DNA of 7,445 nucleotides from a virus (IMGVR_UViG_2734482785_000001:1-7445); one strand, 5' to 3'. Positions 1 to 7,445 are shown, numbered from the stretch's first letter. The notes: a model not told the origin generated them from the sequence alone. Translations and numbers: made by a program.

Positions 1-1
1 A

Positions 2-103
2 CATTGGTACGCATAATGTAGTATGCGTTATGTTGAAAAGGCCGCTGCTAGACTTTCATCCGGCAGCGGCCTTTTTATACATAACGCCATTGTGCGTACC
101 AAA
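2..103. repeat. Long imperfect inverted repeat (hairpin) with dif-like arms enclosing a terminator stem
   Basis: Read directly: 4-18 (TTGGTACGCATAATG) is complementary to 88-102 with one T/G mismatch; 25-33 (GCGTTATGT) is complementary to 79-87; 19-24 (TAGTAT) is an unpaired bulge. 6-16 GGTACGCATAA resembles the E. coli dif XerC arm GGTGCGCATAA and 28-38 TTATGTTGAAA resembles the XerD arm TTATGTTAAAT. Confidence 0.6.
36..77. terminator. Bidirectional rho-independent terminator (9-bp GC-rich stem, A-run 5-prime, T-run 3-prime)
   Basis: Stem 40-48 GGCCGCTGC pairs with 63-71 GCAGCGGCC, loop 49-62, flanked by AAAA (36-39) and TTTTT (72-76). It lies just downstream of the minus-strand ORF ending at 108. 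Confidence 0.75.
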
Positions 104-107
104 TTTT

Positions 108-596: not shown

Positions 597-905
597 TTAT
601 TTTTTGTATAGTCCGTTTTTTTCGTTCTCTTCATAAGCTTTATTCACTCGATCATGCCGCCTTTTTTCTGCTTCTTCGTGCGCTTCGTAGAATCGAGTGT
701 GATTCTCTGCCTCTAATGCTTTTCTTTTTATGTTGCTTACCACATCTTTAGCAGCATCTTTTGCATAATTATCAATGAGATAATTAACTATATCCGTCCA
801 CGCTATAGATGTTCCTGCTTCTTGGCTTGCATCGATAGCCAATCGTTCCATTTTGATTTTACGCTCGGCAGTAATTGCCATCGTAGTTCGCTTGAATAGT
901 GCCAT
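597..905 (-). CDS. Putative ribbon-helix-helix (RHH)-like DNA-binding regulator (102 aa), divergent from gII
   Basis: ORF on the minus strand whose start faces the gII start across a 72-bp spacer. The N-terminal region (KIKMERLAIDASQEAG-TS-IAWTDIVNYLI) fits a beta-strand/helix/G-x-S-T turn/helix pattern seen in Arc/CopG/ParD-type RHH proteins. Start codon choice (M1 vs M9) is uncertain. Confidence 0.5.
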   Translation of the reverse strand: MALFKRTTMAITAERKIKMERLAIDASQEAGTSIAWTDIVNYLIDNYAKDAAKDVVSNIKRKALEAENHTRFYEAHEEAEKRRHDRVNKAYEENEKNGLYKK

Positions 906-977: not shown

Positions 978-2165
978 TTGCATGCATCTGTATCTGTGTG
1001 CTATAAATTTTTTATTGATATACATGCATGCAGGTATAAGGGCTTTGTTGTGTTCTACGATTGGTTGAGTATTGAACAGGATTTTGGCTACCAATTACCC
1101 ATCCTTTCAGATGTGGCTTATCAGCGTATTCATCTTGATAGCGGTGAAGCCAGTGCTTTATCTCAACCAACCTTCCAGCATCGTGGTTCTTTCTGTGATG
1201 TTGTCTCGATCTCGATCCGTGGTTCAGTGTTAAAAATGACTGGAAACCCTTCTCGCTGGGGACGTCTTGATAATCTCTTTGGCCTTCCGACTGTAGATAC
1301 TTGTGTCATGGTATTTAATCAGATTCTAACTGAACTGAAATTACCTTTATTTACCAAGTGTACAAAGTTAATGCCTGGACAATCGAAAGAGAATGAAAAA
1401 GCCCATTTGATTACTGATGGTGCTTTAATTAAAGAACTGCATATAACATCAAACAAATCAGTAGGGAAGGGGAATGAGGATGATTATATATCAGGTCTTT
1501 CTACTCAACCTTACAGGAATAGTATTCCACGGTTGCATTCCAATGGGAAATCTGTTGACTGGCTTTCAAAAAAAGGCAATGTCAATCTTATATACCCAAC
1601 AGTATATAACAAAGCTCATGAGCTTGAGTTGCATAGTCTTGCGAAAATCAAAAATAAATTCCCAGATGATTCTAAAGAATTTAATTATATAATGAATGTT
1701 ATTAATTACTGCAAGGACAACGGCATTGTCAGGTTTGAACAGAAATTAAAGTCTCGTTTTCTTCAAAAAAAATCTCTGTGCTATTGGGGACTTTCTGATT
1801 ATTCTTTGTTAAATAAGTTACATTCTGAATTTCTTGAGCTTGATGAAAAGTTATCGGTGAATGCTATGGACTTTGAAACTATTAGTGAACATCTTATTAG
1901 TCGTGGTGTTGTTGACACTACTCGTGCTGCCAATACTACAGCCATGTATGCAATTCAATGGTTTCATGGCCATTCTTTTGATTTAAATAAAAGGCAAGTA
2001 AAACAACATCGAGCAAGATTAAGAATGATAGGGATTGATATTGCTCAAAAATGTAATGTTTCCAAATTTTCTCCTGTTGTTGTGAAACAAACAAGAGAAA
2101 TAACCGTTTCGGATTGTGTTATTCCTTCTTGGTATATAAAGCCATCTTATTTACGTGCAGCTTAA
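978..2165 (+). CDS. II: Gene II-type rolling-circle replication initiation protein (pII family)
   Basis: 395-aa ORF. Recalled Ff pII-like motifs: N-terminal FIDxxxC, NPSRWGRLDNLFG (cf. ASPAKVLQGHNVFG) and VRFEQKLKSRFL (cf. VRFEARIKTRYL). Position and size match Ff gII. The start at 978 is TTG with no clear SD; alternatives are GTG 996 or GTG 1050 (the latter preceded by AAGGG). Confidence 0.85.
   Translation: MHASVSVCYKFFIDIHACRYKGFVVFYDWLSIEQDFGYQLPILSDVAYQRIHLDSGEASALSQPTFQHRGSFCDVVSISIRGSVLKMTGNPSRWGRLDNLFGLPTVDTCVMVFNQILTELKLPLFTKCTKLMPGQSKENEKAHLITDGALIKELHITSNKSVGKGNEDDYISGLSTQPYRNSIPRLHSNGKSVDWLSKKGNVNLIYPTVYNKAHELELHSLAKIKNKFPDDSKEFNYIMNVINYCKDNGIVRFEQKLKSRFLQKKSLCYWGLSDYSLLNKLHSEFLELDEKLSVNAMDFETISEHLISRGVVDTTRAANTTAMYAIQWFHGHSFDLNKRQVKQHRARLRMIGIDIAQKCNVSKFSPVVVKQTREITVSDCVIPSWYIKPSYLRAA
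1866..2165 (+). CDS. X: Candidate gene X-like in-frame internal product (C-terminal 99 aa of pII)
   Basis: In-frame ATG at 1866 (Met297 of 395) preceded by GGTGA about 6 nt upstream; proportionally analogous to Ff pX, which starts at Met300 of 410. Inference by analogy only. Confidence 0.3.
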   Translation: MDFETISEHLISRGVVDTTRAANTTAMYAIQWFHGHSFDLNKRQVKQHRARLRMIGIDIAQKCNVSKFSPVVVKQTREITVSDCVIPSWYIKPSYLRAA

Positions 2166-2178
2166 TATTAGGTGTATT

Positions 2179-2451
2179 ATGATTAAGATTGAAATTAAAC
2201 CTTCTCAAGCTGTTGTAGATACTCGTAGTGGTGTTTCTAAGAGCACTGGTAAACCATATACGATATCTGAACAGTCTGGTTATATTTTCCTCGGTGGGGA
2301 TTACCCTCAACTATTTAAAATTCCTCTTGAACAAGGCCAGGCTCCATATCCGGCTGGTTTGTATCAGTTGCATCCTTCCAGTATTTTTGTTGGTGACTTT
2401 CAAAAATTACGTATTGGTAAAATTGTTTTAATTTCTATTACAGAAAAGTGA
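2179..2451 (+). CDS. V: Gene V-type ssDNA-binding protein
   Basis: 90-aa product MIKIEIKPSQ...PYPAGLYQLHPSS... is clearly similar to recalled M13 and IKe gene V proteins. ATG at 2179 is preceded by AGGTG (2170-2174). The ORF-track start at 2155 overlaps gII and is rejected. Confidence 0.9.
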   Translation: MIKIEIKPSQAVVDTRSGVSKSTGKPYTISEQSGYIFLGGDYPQLFKIPLEQGQAPYPAGLYQLHPSSIFVGDFQKLRIGKIVLISITEK

Positions 2452-2457
2452 TAAGTT

Positions 2458-2685
2458 ATGGAATCTCATGATAAAGTTATTATTGCCTCTATTTGTGATA
2501 TTAAACCCAGTGGTGACTGTAAGGAAGTCAAGTTAACTTTTTCTGAGATTCCATACCAGCAATTCTCTGATATTGATTATTCAACATTTGCTCAATATTG
2601 GGGGGTTGCTTTTACTTCGGTTGTTGCTTTGTATTTATTTTCACATTGCATCAGCTTGATTATCAAGTTAATACGAAATGCATAA
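2458..2685 (+). CDS. Small protein with C-terminal hydrophobic helix in the gVII/gIX position (possible minor coat protein)
   Basis: 75-aa ORF between gV and gVIII; the C-terminal WGVAFTSVVALYLFSHCISLIIKL is a single predicted TM helix. Ff phages have two roughly 32-aa genes here, so the assignment is uncertain. Confidence 0.4.
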   Translation: MESHDKVIIASICDIKPSGDCKEVKLTFSEIPYQQFSDIDYSTFAQYWGVAFTSVVALYLFSHCISLIIKLIRNA

Positions 2686-2698
2686 ATGGTGGATTTTT

Positions 2699-2929
2699 AT
2701 GAAAAAGATCATTTCATTAGGTTCATTACTGGCAGCTTCATTTTCTATGCCTTCTTTTGCTGCTGAATCAGGTACACCTTCTTCAGGGGTTGATTTGAGT
2801 CAACTTACCAATTCAATTGATTTTGGTTCTGTTCTTACTGGTATTATGGCCGTAGCAGCATCATTAGTTGTACTTTATGCTGGTATTGCTGGCGTTCGTT
2901 GGATTCTTCGTACAGTTAAATCGGCTTAA
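2699..2929 (+). CDS. VIII: Gene VIII-type major coat protein precursor
   Basis: 76-aa product with signal peptide MKKIISLGSLLAASFSMPSFA and likely cleavage after SFA, an acidic/polar N-terminal mature segment, a hydrophobic core GIMAVAASLVVLYAGIAG and a basic C-terminus RWILRTVKSA. Followed immediately by a strong terminator, as in Ff. Confidence 0.85.
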   Translation: MKKIISLGSLLAASFSMPSFAAESGTPSSGVDLSQLTNSIDFGSVLTGIMAVAASLVVLYAGIAGVRWILRTVKSA

Positions 2930-2941
2930 TCTATTAAGGTA

Positions 2942-2965
2942 AGGGGAGTTCCTCCCCTTTTTTTG
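2942..2965 (+). terminator. Rho-independent terminator downstream of gVIII
   Basis: Stem 2942-2948 AGGGGAG pairs with 2952-2958 CTCCCCT, loop TTC, followed by a T-run through about 2964. Confidence 0.8.
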
Positions 2966-3015
2966 GTTATGATTTTAAATTTCTGGTATTTAATGAGTTT
3001 TTTCTGGGGACTTTT

Positions 3016-4488
3016 ATGCGCTTGGGCTGTAATCAAAGGGCTATCGCTTTAACATCTCTTTTTATATTTTTTTTCTCTTTATTAATTCCAGTGCAGAAAG
3101 TTTACTCTAATCCTTTACTTGTAACTAGGGCAGTTCTTCCAACTGTGCTTGGTAGGGTGATTTCATCTAGAGCTCTTCAGGTAACGACTACCGAATCTGC
3201 TTATTCATTAATGGTTCGGAATACATCTACAGCAGTATCTAAAACTGTGTTATCAAAATCGCCATCTATTGCCAGCAAGGGCTTTTTCCGTAGTGCTTCA
3301 GGTGCATTGACATGGGCTGGAGTTGGATATTCCGTTGGGTCTCTTACTGCTGAAAATTTTTCTGATAATGGTCGTTATTTAATTGCCACATCTGGTAAAG
3401 CTTTAGGTAACGGTAAATGGGAGGTTAATTTTGGTGATAAAACGTTTACTGTAGATTTTGAACCAACTTCTGATAATCCTTTTGTCATCAGTGCTGACTC
3501 ACTTAATATGAATAGTTATGATACTGTTGATAAGGTAAGTGCCGGTTATCGTTGGTGGCAATGTACTTATGGTACATCTTGTAAGGGGCCATTTATTGTA
3601 GGTTCTGTTACTGGGGTTGCTCAAGGATATTTTAATTCAGTTGCATCAGGTGGTGGTTTAACTTGCCGGGCACCTGATAAATCTTGTAGCTATAAGTTGA
3701 ATATTTTATCGGTAAATGAAGGACAAGAGGGGGCGGTCTCGGTTGTAAAATATATCTATACTTCTTCTTATTTAAATACAGATGGTGAGTCAATAACTAC
3801 TACTATTACTCCTATTCAGGGTATACAGGTGTATTTTAATAAGGATTTTGATAAGGCTCTAGAGGTTCTTTTTTCTGATTATAAGATGGCAACTGATGAT
3901 GATGGGTTTTCTGTTATGGATGGATTAAAGAAAGTTCCTATGGATTTGGATACTCTTGCTAAGATGATAAATAATTTATTAATGGACGCAGCATCCCAGC
4001 CAGATTATCAGGGAGTCCCTGTATCTTCAACAAATCCTGTAACATCGAATGAAATAAAAGTTGCTTATCCTAATTATGGTTCTTTGACAGAATTTGATTA
4101 TATGTATCCAGCTCAAAATTCACCATCTTCTGATGTGAATATTAGTGTGCCTGGATTTTCTTCTGGTGAATCAGGTGGCGGTTCTGATAATGGTACAAAT
4201 AATCCTGATTTTAGTCATCCAGACGTCCCTGAACCGACGCTAGATACACCACCTTCTGCGGAGGAGATACTTCGTCCAATTAAAGAACTTTTTAATCAGT
4301 ATCGAGATTTAGAAGTACGTCCATCAGGTCTTTCTGCTACATGTCCTGTTGCTAAATTTAATGTGTTTGATAGAGATTACGTTATTGATATGCATTGCGT
4401 ATTTTTGGAGGAATACCGTTCTTTTATTGGTGTCATTTCTTCTTTGATATGGGCTTTAATTTCCTTGCGTATTTTGCTTTCTACGTGA
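3016..4488 (+). CDS. III: Gene III-type minor coat / adsorption protein
   Basis: 490-aa ORF with SD GGGGA 5 nt upstream. N-terminal signal peptide, Cys pairs (WWQCTYGTSCKG, LTCRAPDKSCSY), a Gly/Ser-rich linker (SGESGGGSDNGTNN) and a C-terminal hydrophobic anchor (FIGVISSLIWALISLRILL); position after gVIII. Confidence 0.85.
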   Translation: MRLGCNQRAIALTSLFIFFFSLLIPVQKVYSNPLLVTRAVLPTVLGRVISSRALQVTTTESAYSLMVRNTSTAVSKTVLSKSPSIASKGFFRSASGALTWAGVGYSVGSLTAENFSDNGRYLIATSGKALGNGKWEVNFGDKTFTVDFEPTSDNPFVISADSLNMNSYDTVDKVSAGYRWWQCTYGTSCKGPFIVGSVTGVAQGYFNSVASGGGLTCRAPDKSCSYKLNILSVNEGQEGAVSVVKYIYTSSYLNTDGESITTTITPIQGIQVYFNKDFDKALEVLFSDYKMATDDDGFSVMDGLKKVPMDLDTLAKMINNLLMDAASQPDYQGVPVSSTNPVTSNEIKVAYPNYGSLTEFDYMYPAQNSPSSDVNISVPGFSSGESGGGSDNGTNNPDFSHPDVPEPTLDTPPSAEEILRPIKELFNQYRDLEVRPSGLSATCPVAKFNVFDRDYVIDMHCVFLEEYRSFIGVISSLIWALISLRILLST

Positions 4489-4503
4489 CATTGAGGTTTT
4501 AAA

Positions 4504-4797
4504 ATGGCTTTATTTGGATTGTTATTTAGTATCGTTAATGTTCTTTTAGGTTTTATTTTTAGAACTGTTATCATTAGGTTTGTTTTGTTTTTTGGACTTC
4601 TTTTTGTTGTTCATGAGTTCATTTATGTATTATCTTCATGGATACCATTTAATTTTAACATACCAGCTTTATTTCGAGCTTTACCTGCTCCTATGTGGTA
4701 TTTTTTTGATTTATTTAAGTTCAATGAAGGTTTTCAGTTAATATTTAACGCATATATTACTCGTTTTATTATTCGTAGAATTCCGATTATTGGTTAG
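4504..4797 (+). CDS. VI: Gene VI-type minor coat protein (hydrophobic)
   Basis: 97-aa highly hydrophobic ORF with SD GAGG 7 nt upstream of ATG 4504. Position between gIII and gI and size are comparable to Ff pVI (112 aa). Confidence 0.7.
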   Translation: MALFGLLFSIVNVLLGFIFRTVIIRFVLFFGLLFVVHEFIYVLSSWIPFNFNIPALFRALPAPMWYFFDLFKFNEGFQLIFNAYITRFIIRRIPIIG

Positions 4798-4801
4798 TGT
4801 T

Positions 4802-5839
4802 ATGCCTATTTCTGCTTATGTTGGTTCTTTAGGTAGTGGTAAATCATACGAGGTTGTTTCTAGTGTTATTGTACCTGCTTGTTCTTCTGGGCGTCGTGTT
4901 GTTACTAATATTTACGGTATAAATAAAGATAAAATTCATGCTTATTGCATGAAAAAATCAAAATCGGGGAAAGATATATCCTTAGGTGATGTTATTTATG
5001 TTTCTAATGATGATATCAAAGCTGATGATTTTTTCCCATATAAAGATTCTCGTCCTGAAGATACATTTTGTCAGTATGGAGATTTGATTGTTATTGATGA
5101 ATCCTGGCGCATTTGGGATAGTGACAAATCCATTTGTGAGAATCATCGTTCATTTATTGCAGAGCATCGTCATTTTACTAATATTGAAACTGGTGTTTGT
5201 TGTGACCTTGTTGTTATAAATCAGGAGGTTTCTTCTTTACCTCGTTTTATTAAAGCAAGGTTAGACACTACTTTTAGAATGCAAAAGCATATTGCTATTG
5301 GCATGAAGAGTCGTTATCGTGTCGATGTTTTTAATGGTTCTAAACTTTATAAGTCAAACAAGATTACAAGTTATCAGAGGAAATATAATCCAGATATATT
5401 TCCTTTGTATAAATCATATGAGAATGGGGATGGCAAAGAACTTACTGTTGATAATCGGGCTAGCATTTTAGGCAAGAAAAGTTTGTATTTTGTTGTTCTT
5501 GCTATGATTCTCATTTTCATATTTAGCATTGGTTATCTTTATAGGTTTTTTAATGGTGGTTTGGTCAAGAGTGATGCTTCTGACTTGCCGCCTCAGGACT
5601 CTAATTTCCGTTCTGTTAATTTTAATTCAGTTCCTGAAATTCCAAATACACCTAAATTATCTTCAACTTGGCGTATCGTTGGAAAACTTGAAAGAGAAGG
5701 GCGTAGTTATGTGATAATTACAAATAATTCAGGTCTTGTCCGTATGGTTCCTGCTTCTACCTTTAATTATCAAGGTGTTTTACTTACAGGAATTGTTGAT
5801 GGTGAGCTTGTTACTTTTTATTCAGGTGGTGACAAATGA
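4802..5839 (+). CDS. I: Gene I-type assembly ATPase (Zot-family P-loop NTPase)
   Basis: Walker A GSLGSGKS about 10 residues from the N-terminus (cf. M13 GKLGSGKT), Walker B LIVIDESW, and an internal TM segment LYFVVLAMILIFIFSIGYLY. ATG 4802 is preferred over the ORF-track TTG at 4790, which overlaps the gVI stop. Stop overlaps the gIV start (ATGA at 5836-5839). Confidence 0.9.
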   Translation: MPISAYVGSLGSGKSYEVVSSVIVPACSSGRRVVTNIYGINKDKIHAYCMKKSKSGKDISLGDVIYVSNDDIKADDFFPYKDSRPEDTFCQYGDLIVIDESWRIWDSDKSICENHRSFIAEHRHFTNIETGVCCDLVVINQEVSSLPRFIKARLDTTFRMQKHIAIGMKSRYRVDVFNGSKLYKSNKITSYQRKYNPDIFPLYKSYENGDGKELTVDNRASILGKKSLYFVVLAMILIFIFSIGYLYRFFNGGLVKSDASDLPPQDSNFRSVNFNSVPEIPNTPKLSSTWRIVGKLEREGRSYVIITNNSGLVRMVPASTFNYQGVLLTGIVDGELVTFYSGGDK

Positions 5840-7026
5840 AACGTTTAATATCTCTGTTCTTGATGTTTTTTAGTTTTTCTTGTTTTTCTGCTACTGAGCT
5901 TGAAATAAAAAAACTTGCTTTACCTGAGGCTATTTCTTTGATTTATTCAGAGGTCTTTAAGGTTCCTTATATGATTTCTCCTGATTTAGCCAATGACCAA
6001 CGCCTTGTTTCATTTAAAATAACCAAGGATGTTAATGAGCGTGATTTTATTGAACGTTATTTTTCTAATATGAACATTAAAATTCATACAAAAAAAGGTG
6101 TTGACTACATAACGCCTTTTAAACCTCAAGAAAAAAAAACCATTTTAAAGGTTTTTGTGTATTCTCCATTAAATCGTTCAGTTGGTTATTTGTCTGATAT
6201 TCTCTCTGGTTTTGTATCTGGTCAATTTGGAAATTCAGGAAATATAAGCACTAACATATCCAGTACTTCTTCTTCAGGGGCTTCTAATAATTTCAATAGG
6301 TTAGGTGATTCTCTTGTGTATTATGGCACACAAAAAGATATTGACATTATCAAGAGCATATTGCCAACCATTGATACGGTTCCTGATGAGGTTGTTGTTT
6401 CAGGATATGTTTTTGAGGTTCAGACTGGTCAGAATGATGGCTCAGGATTTTTACTTGCTGCTAAAGTTATATCTGAAAAATTTAATATTTCTCTTGGCTC
6501 TAACATTAGTACTTCTGGTGATTTTTTGAGTTTAAAAACAGGTTCAATTGATGCAATTTATACATTACTTTCAACTGATAACAGATTTTCTGTTGTATCT
6601 TCGCCAAGATTGCGCGTGAAGAATAATACAGAGGCTTCTTTTTCTGTAGGTGCCGATGTTCCTGTTTTAGGTAGTGTTACAGTTAATGGTAATAATTCAA
6701 CCCAGTCTGTTGAGTATCGTAGCTCAGGGGTTTTGTTTAGAGTGAAACCATCTATTAAAATCAACGCTATTGATTTGAACATTCAACAGCAGCTTTCTAA
6801 TTTTGTTGCAACTGATACTGGCGTTAATAATTCTCCGACGCTTTTAAAGCGAGATGTGACAACAGACGTTGTTATGAATGATGGTGATATTATTTTGATA
6901 GGAGGCCTTGCAGAGCAGAAGGATTCTAAATCTTCGTCTGGTTGGTCTATTTTTGGCTCACGTTCATCAGAAAATTCTAAGACAGATATTGTTGTGATGC
7001 TTCAGGTTCGCAAAGTACCAAGATGA
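5836..7026 (+). CDS. IV: Gene IV-type secretin (outer-membrane export channel)
   Basis: 396-aa ORF with SD AGGTGG upstream and an N-terminal signal peptide. Recalled pIV-like segments: VSGYVFEVQTGQ (cf. IEGLIFEVQQG), SSPRLRVKNN...VGADVPV (cf. SVPRILTLSG...VGQNVPF), DGDIILIGGL (cf. DGQTLLLGGL), and a C-terminal S-domain-like tail. Confidence 0.9.
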   Translation: MKRLISLFLMFFSFSCFSATELEIKKLALPEAISLIYSEVFKVPYMISPDLANDQRLVSFKITKDVNERDFIERYFSNMNIKIHTKKGVDYITPFKPQEKKTILKVFVYSPLNRSVGYLSDILSGFVSGQFGNSGNISTNISSTSSSGASNNFNRLGDSLVYYGTQKDIDIIKSILPTIDTVPDEVVVSGYVFEVQTGQNDGSGFLLAAKVISEKFNISLGSNISTSGDFLSLKTGSIDAIYTLLSTDNRFSVVSSPRLRVKNNTEASFSVGADVPVLGSVTVNGNNSTQSVEYRSSGVLFRVKPSIKINAIDLNIQQQLSNFVATDTGVNNSPTLLKRDVTTDVVMNDGDIILIGGLAEQKDSKSSSGWSIFGSRSSENSKTDIVVMLQVRKVPR

Positions 7027-7029
7027 GAA

Positions 7030-7071
7030 TTCTGTCCGATCCCCGCAGCTTTGCGAGGAGAACGGACAGAA
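7030..7071 (+). other. Imperfect hairpin immediately after the gIV stop (candidate terminator or packaging-signal-like element)
   Basis: Stem 7030-7038 TTCTGTCCG pairs with 7063-7071 CGGACAGAA around a 24-nt partly self-complementary loop. No T-run directly follows; AGATGA occurs at 7021-7026 and 7071-7076. Confidence 0.45.
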
Positions 7072-7129
7072 GATGAATCTTGGTTTATGGCATTTTTTAA
7101 GCAATATGACGATGTTTGTTTTATTGTTT

Positions 7130-7445
7130 TTATGCCGTCAGGCATGGAAGGCGGCATGATGATGTTTCATGTTGTGCCTTTGGTTGTCCGCCGATACCAG
7201 GGAGATATGTCATAGTGCGCGGAACAGCGCAACGCGCCCCCTGCAAAGCCGGGTTTTCATTGCAGTTATCGAGACGAACGGCGCAAGACGTGAGTCGTCC
7301 AGGCGGCGTTAATGCTTGTTGATGGAATTGATCGCTTTCATCGGGCATGACAAAATCTAAAAGCCGGTGACGGGGTTTCGTTAACTGTGGTGGTTTGTTT
7401 CTCCTGGTATCCGGCAAGCCTAAATTCCTCTTTACGGGCTGATGC
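7130..7445. other. GC-rich (about 55%) flank with no convincing ORF; host flank or structured phage non-coding region
   Basis: Hand count of 7201-7320 gives about 55-58% GC against about 32% in a gIV sample (6001-6060). The only ORFs (7116..7322 plus, 7130..7417 minus) overlap on opposite strands and have Pro/Arg/Cys-biased composition. Confidence 0.4.

Follow-up and report, generated by a model that had tools for sequence, protein, structure and literature searches.

The attP(+) site of the Vibrio cholerae phage CTXphi was described by Val et al. (2005), whose work is considered here as reported in PMC3089051 and PMC4246890. Of its two inverted component sites, attP1 has a central region of 12 nt and attP2 one of 7 nt. 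Neither site is competent on its own; attP(+) is formed when they pair in the (+) single-stranded DNA (PMC3089051; PMC4246890). XerC alone exchanges one pair of strands, with specificity derived from base pairing beside the XerC arm. Since homology on the XerD side is lacking, the second exchange is blocked and the resulting junction is resolved by replication (PMC4246890; PMC3089051). Masking of the site in double-stranded DNA makes the integration irreversible (PMC4246890; PMC3089051).

CUS-1Phi and YpfPhi have been listed as phages of the CTXphi type, with features for direct integration of single-stranded DNA (PMC4246890; PMC3089051; PMC3442271). YpfPhi has an inverted pair of XerC/XerD sites, regenerates dif at its 3' end, and occurs as two to four tandem copies (PMC4266046). 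The CTXphi-class status of these two phages is therefore already part of the literature, and the hairpin analyzed here is, judged from its sequence, a homologue on a different, If1-related backbone. The model of ssDNA integration in Escherichia coli has so far been inferred by analogy with V. cholerae. To this model, the present analysis adds the breadth of the module across inoviruses and genera, as well as a map of natural variation that supports the hairpin model.

The hairpin is located at the start of a 7,445-nt stretch of viral DNA (IMGVR_UViG_2734482785_000001:1-7445), which was analyzed at its full length and is referred to below as the window. It is very probably the attP(+) site of a temperate, integrase-less inovirus, whose single-stranded DNA would fold and be inserted at dif by host XerC and XerD, while the upper stem would terminate transcription. 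Support for this reading came from the structure itself, its conservation and covariation, the junction sequences and orientation of integrated relatives, and the lack of a recombinase gene. Use of an ssDNA substrate, catalysis by XerC only, and replicative resolution would follow from analogy with the CTXphi paradigm.

Genome Organization and Gene Content

The window represented one complete inovirus genome unit. The first 20 nt of its source contig (JUCF01000057.1 from GCA_000798235.1; 7,465 nt) recurred at the end of that contig, indicating either a circular sequence or a single unit from a tandem array. In addition to a G2P-type replication protein and a small ORF (Table 1), the + strand codes for a gene-V-type ssDNA-binding protein, a coat B-type major coat protein, a 490-aa pIII-like protein, a DUF2523/pVI-like protein, a Zot/pI ATPase, and a pIV secretin. 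Two further small ORFs were located on the - strand. In inoviruses, the gene-bearing strand is the packaged strand; the + strand of the window was therefore taken as the packaged strand.

No phage recombinase was found in the ORF list and Pfam matches of the whole window, which contained only inovirus replication and morphogenesis families. The three small ORFs without a Pfam match (133, 102, and 75 aa) are too short to encode a tyrosine or serine recombinase. If1 was the only match to the whole window in the phage-record collection, with 76% nucleotide identity over the gene II region. A search with the hairpin (window 1-107) yielded no matches in the 50,697 phage records, If1 among them, so that no deposited phage genome could be used as a direct reference. 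An Rfam scan of the window returned sub-threshold chance matches only.

Several other elements of the window were observed. Compared with L038, a related IMG/VR locus, the window was 96-98% identical throughout except at ~593-1050, which comprises the - strand ORF 597-905 together with the sequence preceding gene II; this divergent stretch has the appearance of an exchanged immunity or regulatory module. A ATGCATGC-rich inverted-repeat cluster (967-1037; 21-nt arms, 81% complementary) immediately precedes gene II and is probably an operator and/or (+) origin region. Between both - strand ORFs, a 70-nt element with three short hairpins (541-610) matched the major intergenic region of If1 and approximately 400 conjugative, mostly IncF, plasmids at ~85% identity; its plasmid context was uninformative. 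By analogy with G4-type ssi sites, it may possibly act as a single-strand initiation or complementary-strand origin signal.

A GC-rich block of ~200 nt (7141-7340) just upstream of attP was ~75% identical in the otherwise different inoviruses L002, L020, and L045 and 88% identical in L001. Its substitutions were spread evenly over codon phases and accompanied by 1-nt indels, indicating that the block is non-coding despite annotated or possible ORFs (7130-7417, - strand). No covariation was found in its consensus fold. E. coli A37 contained a related phage, with 84% identity across the gene II region, both in NZ_CP195780.1, a 7,439-bp 'plasmid', and in the chromosome (NZ_CP195776.1, 2410033-2411566); these copies apparently represent a replicative form and a prophage.

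Table 1. Features of the window discussed in the text (positions counted from the first nucleotide of the window).
Feature	Position	Strand	Remarks
Probable attP(+) hairpin of packaged (+) single strand	4-102	+	lower stem with Xer sites, upper terminator-like stem-loop
Site 1 XerC-binding arm, GGTACGCATAA	6-16	+	predicted; 10/11 to dif
Site 1 central region, TGTAGTATGCG, 11 nt	17-27	+	17-18 and 25-27 paired, 19-24 bulge
Site 1 XerD-binding arm, TTATGTTGAAA	28-38	+	predicted; 9/11 to dif
GC-rich stem-loop	36-75	both	36-48 pairs with 63-75 (13 nt, 100% complementary); 14-nt loop
Site 2 XerD-like arm, TTATGTATAAA	74-84	-	pairs with 28-38 in fold
Site 2 central region, 5 nt	85-89	-	TGGCG on -, CGCCA on +
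Site 2 XerC-like arm, GGTACGCACAA	90-100	-	pairs with 6-16, one T.G wobble
Two small ORFs	108-509 and 597-905	-	
G2P-type replication protein	1050-2165	+	
Small ORF	2458-2685	+	

Structure of the Hairpin and Its dif-Like Sites

Folding of positions 1-110 of the (+) strand with DNA parameters yielded an MFE structure in which 4-18 paired with 88-102 and 25-48 with 63-87, with T78 bulged out and 19-24 (TAGTAT) forming a 6-nt bulge. All pairings put forward in the original prediction (4-18 with 88-102 and 25-33 with 79-87), as well as its TAGTAT bulge, were thereby reproduced, and a repeat finder recovered the same hairpin arms. The fold energy was -38.2 kcal/mol, as compared with -11.4 ± 2.3 for shuffled sequences (z = -11.9), and none of 200 shuffles folded as well. 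When the circularized genome was scanned on both strands in sliding 120-nt segments, this hairpin was the most stable structure, the next best reaching -22.5. [quoted passage not shown] In the inovirus cycle, moreover, the (-) strand is never free.

The hairpin was composed of two inverted dif-like sites. Site 1 has the structure GGTACGCATAA-11 nt-TTATGTTGAAA, and site 2 the structure GGTACGCACAA-5 nt-TTATGTATAAA; the latter, which was not set out explicitly in the original prediction, is GGTACGCACAA-TGGCG-TTATGTATAAA when read as the reverse complement of 74-100. Sequence comparison with dif confirmed that the arms of site 1 match the XerC and XerD halves at 10 and 9 of 11 positions, respectively, and that they are 11 nt apart, as had been claimed. 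Positions 17-20 (TGTA) matched the dif central region TGTATA on its XerC side; the central region of site 2 showed no homology to the XerD side (CGC vs. TAT). With spacers of 11 and 5 nt rather than 6-8 bp, neither site is a canonical double-stranded Xer site. The unusual spacing, which had been a concern in the original prediction, is in fact a hallmark of the CTXphi class, with 12 and 7 nt in CTXphi itself (PMC3089051; PMC4246890).

Single arm matches in the genome were within chance expectation, with two found versus 1.0 expected for the XerC arm and nine versus 9.1 for the XerD arm. Composite sites, consisting of two arms separated by 5-12 nt, occurred twice, both inside the hairpin, versus 0.04 expected, and none of 300 Markov simulations produced two or more such sites.

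In the upper part of the hairpin, a 13-bp GC-rich stem was followed by TTTTT on the + strand and by TTTT on the - strand. The stem-loop at 36-75 is probably a bidirectional intrinsic terminator between the convergent + strand genes and the - strand ORF at 108-509. Of the GC-rich terminator stem that had been proposed, the stem and its T-runs on both strands were found, whereas the top stem (36-48/63-75), with its 14-nt loop, was not called by a terminator scan of the window that accepts loops of up to 8 nt. A terminator-like upper stem and chance-level single-arm matches are also what an ordinary bidirectional terminator with fortuitous dif-like flanks, or a relic of past chromosomal recombination, would show. 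Such an origin is nevertheless extremely improbable in view of the number of composite sites relative to expectation, the conservation and covariation of the lower stem across genera, and the location of prophage junctions exactly within that stem (see below).

Distribution and Covariation of the Hairpin Family

Relatives of the hairpin were retrieved with the exact 18-mer TTATGTTGAAAAGGCCGC (window 28-45). This search pattern limits the variation visible in the upper stem and itself forces part of the invariance of 28-38 in alignment A1. The 18-mer was present in 48 inovirus contigs from IMG/VR and, among species-representative genomes, in Yersinia pestis, Rosenbergiella, Photorhabdus, Pectobacterium, Izhakiella, Lelliottia, and Kluyvera, while the same search in Kosakonia identified a shortened hairpin copy only. 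Eight other matches lacked the hairpin and were taken as chance, and two MAG contigs with E. coli flanks were considered likely contamination. The family thus defined occurred in approximately 60 inovirus loci, including Y. pestis YpfPhi and CUS-1-like E. coli prophages. In Y. pestis, the resident prophage YpfPhi carried the hairpin at attL as well as at its tandem junction. A full-length hairpin was present in 230 of 5,426 complete E. coli genomes (~4%).

Of the 59 full-hairpin loci, 54 contained detectable homologues of pI, pIV, or pII (55 of 60 when the window is included). In every locus where they were detected, they were encoded on the site-1 (XerC-to-XerD) strand, as expected if only the (+) strand fold is used. 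The hairpin was ~82-83% identical between lineages whose pI and pIV proteins were only 26-51% and 39-65% identical, respectively, and all versions that were compared folded alike (-30 to -40 kcal/mol). The hairpin of Y. pestis NCTC5923 (L060/L061), for example, was 82.8% identical to that of the window, with an identical 18-mer at 28-45; the pI and pIV proteins of L060 were 96 and 99.8% identical, respectively, to those of the E. coli NC101 prophage. All full-length hairpin relatives kept the dif-like arms, whose absence from relatives had been named in the original prediction as an argument against an attachment site.

Throughout the family, the top-strand central region was 10-11 nt long, always began with TGT, included a hypervariable bulge, and ended with CG. 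The bottom central region was 5 nt (CGTCA or CGCCA). In 23 attP-type copies, whose relatedness can inflate covariation statistics, 93.3% of cells were paired, as compared with 28-50% when the partners were slid. Compensatory changes were observed at 4-6/100-102 and at 9/97, with the latter position being G:C, A:T (window phage), or T:A, and the pair 27/85 changed from G:C to A:T in Rosenbergiella and Izhakiella. Exact-word ascertainment and kinship limit the weight of these in silico statistics, but their direction is clear and suggests that pairing of the stem is under selection.

Shortened copies of the hairpin were observed on plasmids, at 3001-3071 in L004 (E. coli ATCC 11775 plasmid) and in ~480 plasmid places. 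These copies consisted of the terminator and site 2, with site 1 missing, and were located beside an IS200C remnant and a STM4504/CBY_0614-family gene. As a gene of this family also adjoins the intact hairpin in L054 (E. coli NC101, CUS-1/Ypf-type), they appear to be fragments of CUS-1/Ypf-type prophages captured on IncF plasmids. An interpretation of plasmid matches to 29-102 as hairpins without dif arms, which would have spoken against an attachment site, was rejected, as these are shortened copies that retain site 2.

Prophage Junctions at dif

Integrations of related phages adjacent to dif, on the existence of which the original prediction depended, were abundant. L038 was 97.9% identical to the window over 1051-7215, carried an identical hairpin, and was located beside the E. 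coli hipA flank. At its attL, a host-type XerC arm GGTGCGCATAA was joined to phage TGTAGTATGCG, with the junction sequence ...TGGTGCGCATAA|TGTAGTATGCGTTATGTT... and, including the hipA-side flank, ...ccttggtttatacTGGTGCGCATAA|TGTAGTATGCGTTATGTT... This hybrid (GGTGCGCATAA|TGTAGTATGCG) places the crossover within CGCATAA|TGTA. The attL of L038 is the hybrid predicted for an exchange at the boundary of XerC arm and central region. The attL of the window lineage is known via this locus, which ends before attR. The exact phage was absent from the complete E. coli genomes in the collection and, since the best match there was only 87% identical, we infer integration of the window phage itself from its 97.9% identical relative.

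L001 (E. coli 300709, 87% identical) was a tandem prophage adjoining ydeT, with the hairpin at the inter-copy junction. At its right end, the phage flank was followed by aGTGCGCATAATGTATATTATGTTAAAT, a regenerated perfect dif. Different inoviruses with the same architecture were located between hipA and dif in L002, which encodes an unrelated replication initiator, L005, which encodes a 667-aa replication endonuclease, and L054. The latter, the prophage of E. coli NC101, is presumably of the CUS-1 type, in view of its near identity to the Y. pestis prophage. An attR with a regenerated dif was found in L001, L002, L011, and L054, and in all eight loci that contained both elements the hairpin came first, followed by the phage and then by a perfect dif, with a single orientation throughout. 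The left flank of the phage was identical upstream of attP and upstream of attR in L001, L011, and L054. An empty attB, consisting of the hipA flank and a complete dif, was present in 5,115 of 5,426 complete E. coli genomes.

The hybrid attL of L038 and the regenerated dif at the four attR sites support the CTXphi-type folded attP that had originally been suggested. Further backing was provided by the invariant orientation, the restriction of the TGT match to the XerC side, the compensatory changes in the stem, and the lack of a phage recombinase. We read the junction data as excluding a chance resemblance to dif.

Tandem arrays were found in L001, L005, L054, L010, L025, and Y. pestis. In addition, the IMG/VR contigs L008, L009, and L012 contained heterologous arrays at dif, with two hairpin variants or differing attP/attR flanks per locus. 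Successive integration of different inoviruses is a plausible explanation for these arrays and would offer a route for exchange of the attP module. In L005, the attL central region (10011-10024) read TGTAACATGCG and that of its own tandem junction (18343-18356) TGTGACATGCG. At central position 4, this attL was host-like (TGTA vs. phage TGTG), which is not predicted by a simple XerC exchange at the arm boundary; the mismatch could be a copy polymorphism or the result of repair of the exchanged strand.

Functional double-stranded Xer sites have a central region of 6-8 bp, whereas the site-1 spacer was 10-11 bp in all family members. The same argument has already been made for CTXphi (PMC4246890). 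It bears on a VGJphi-like mode of integration, in which only site 1 (6-38) of the replicative form would be exchanged with dif by XerC, with site 2 and the hairpin being incidental or a terminator only. Phages of the VGJphi type do integrate via a double-stranded site (PMC4246890), and an exchange at double-stranded site 1 predicts the same attL and attR sequences as were seen in the relatives. However, the attL of these relatives kept the 10-11-nt spacer, and site 2 was retained in every full-length copy, with compensatory changes that preserve its pairing to site 1; under a double-stranded model, site 2 would not be expected to change in step with site 1. In addition, a functional double-stranded attL would make the prophages excisable, whereas stable tandem arrays were the rule. 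On this evidence, a VGJphi-like attP is unlikely.

Candidate Packaging Signals

As an alternative to a folded attachment site, an Ff-style packaging-signal hairpin that doubles as a terminator had been proposed. In such a case, the (+) strand hairpin would be recognized during virion assembly by the pVII/pIX end, either as its sole function or besides a role as attP. The position of the hairpin argues against packaging as its main function: it lies 420 nt downstream of gene IV (which ends at 7026), across the circular junction, rather than at the Ff position, which is occupied by a separate conserved hairpin (7017-7084). It is true that the hairpin is the most stable one of the (+) strand, is non-coding, and has an invariant orientation relative to the genes, and packaging signals of integrative inoviruses are poorly known (10.1101/2023.12.30.573655). 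Yet no counterpart was found in the phage records, which include If1, the closest named non-integrating relative, and lineages whose virion proteins differ widely share this hairpin, as illustrated by the range of pI identities given above. Packaging would, moreover, explain neither the dif-like arms nor the TGT rule nor the chromosomal junctions. A packaging function of this hairpin is therefore regarded as quite improbable, although a secondary role of this kind is conceivable.

The second hairpin, at 7017-7084, is an imperfect, conserved structure directly after the gene IV stop (DNA MFE -21.1, z = -6.3). L001 and Lelliottia L069 share a compensatory T>G/A>C change in this structure, and in If1 gene IV is likewise followed directly by an analogous, GC-rich hairpin. 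As a candidate packaging signal, the hairpin at 7017-7084 is, judged by its position, preferable to the attP hairpin.

Proposed Integration Mechanism

According to the proposed folded attP(+) mechanism, the (+) single strand would fold at 4-102 after infection or rolling-circle replication. The two inverted sites, individually incompetent with their 11- and 5-nt centers, would then pair to yield one duplex XerC arm and one duplex XerD arm, which would flank a partly unpaired center of 2 bp, a 6-nt bulge, and 3 bp. Host XerC and XerD would bind both this folded stem and the chromosomal dif. XerC would cut the (+) strand after ...CATAA (A16; 16/17) and the top strand of dif at the corresponding position, and would swap the strands, with the exchange being stabilized by the shared TGT(A) at positions 17-20. 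As there is no central homology on its side (CGC vs. dif TAT), XerD would not make a second exchange, and the pseudo-Holliday junction would be converted into a prophage by replication.

The predicted product is host-GGTGCGCATAA|TGTAGTATGCG...phage(+)...GGTACGCATAA|TGTATATTATGTTAAAT-host, in which attL would be masked and non-functional and attR would be a regenerated dif. Since it retains the 11-nt spacer, attL would be inert, while the regenerated dif at attR would allow further integrations and hence tandem arrays. Such repeated integration fits the tandem or heterologous arrays in L001, L005, L008, L009, L010, L012, L025, L054, and Y. pestis, and tandem arrays are as expected for non-excising prophages.

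These results indicate the likely route by which an uncharacterized, If1-related E. coli inovirus becomes a prophage, and predict an exact crossover between window positions 16 and 17. They also indicate that the CUS-1/YpfPhi-type attP is not confined to one phage, but is a conserved module of several divergent inovirus lineages that spans the Enterobacterales (Escherichia, Yersinia, Kluyvera, Lelliottia, Pectobacterium, Photorhabdus, Rosenbergiella, and Izhakiella). Its natural variation, with an invariant TGT, a hypervariable bulge, and a compensated stem, constitutes a mutational map for the ssDNA-integration model in E. coli.

A more tentative extension, which we put forward as a speculative possibility, is that the element is a self-contained, horizontally exchanged 'integration cassette'. 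It would serve as an ssDNA Xer site and as a bidirectional terminator, and perhaps also as a landmark for assembly or packaging, and would be swapped among unrelated Enterobacterales inoviruses through recombination within heterologous tandem arrays at dif. Such exchange would explain both the occurrence of a ~83% identical element across lineages with morphogenesis proteins that are 26-65% identical and the broken hairpin copies on IncF plasmids.

Comparison with Known Systems

With the packaging hairpin of Ff phages (f1/M13), the hairpin of the window shares its nature as a long, imperfect (+) strand hairpin in a non-coding region. It differs in not being located directly after gene IV, in carrying dif-like arms, in being the crossover point of prophage junctions, and in being absent from If1. 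The likeness to VGJphi consists of inovirus integration at dif that depends on host XerCD, with XerC-first exchange. VGJphi, however, uses a single double-stranded site with a 7-bp center in a reversible reaction (PMC4246890), whereas the window phage has two inverted sites with 11- and 5-nt spacers and conserved intrastrand pairing.

The resemblance to CTXphi is more extensive. Both phages have inverted, non-canonical sites (12/7 nt in CTXphi and 11/5 nt in the window) with dif homology on the XerC side only (TGT), and the (+) ssDNA fold, which unmasks one XerC and one XerD site in CTXphi, would do so in the window phage as well. Absence of an integrase, regeneration of dif, and tandem arrays are likewise shared. 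There is no sequence homology beyond the dif-like arms, and the host and its dif sequence are different. CTXphi has a ~90-nt spacer and a forked hairpin of ~150 nt, while the spacer of the window hairpin is ~35 nt (39-73) and is itself a terminator-type stem-loop. In contrast to CTXphi, the window phage encodes its own secretin (pIV). The mechanism has been proven by experiment for CTXphi only, and is assigned to the window phage by analogy.

Differences from the CUS-1Phi/YpfPhi family concern both the phage backbone and the hairpin. The G2P of the window phage is If1-related (76% nucleotide identity), its pI and pIV are 51 and 65% identical, respectively, to those of the CUS-1/Ypf-type L054, and its genome measures 7.4 kb, as compared with 8.7-9.3 kb for the CUS-1/Ypf type. 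Unlike in the latter, no STM4504-family gene is located beside its hairpin. Within the hairpin, position 4 of the XerC arm is an A:T pair in the window phage and G.A or G:C elsewhere, the bulge (TAGTAT) and loop sequences differ from those of CUS-1Phi and YpfPhi, and the XerD arm of site 2 reads TTTATACATAA instead of CTTTAGCATAA. The attP of CUS-1Phi (from E. coli O18:K1:H7) and YpfPhi is, nevertheless, homologous to the window hairpin, with ~83% identity over ~99 nt. They share two inverted dif-like sites with a GC-rich stem-loop between them, a top center of 10-11 nt that starts with TGT, and a bottom center of 5 nt. Also common to these phages are tandem arrays, the regeneration of dif at attR, and dif as the integration target, which in E. 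coli adjoins hipA (PMC4266046).
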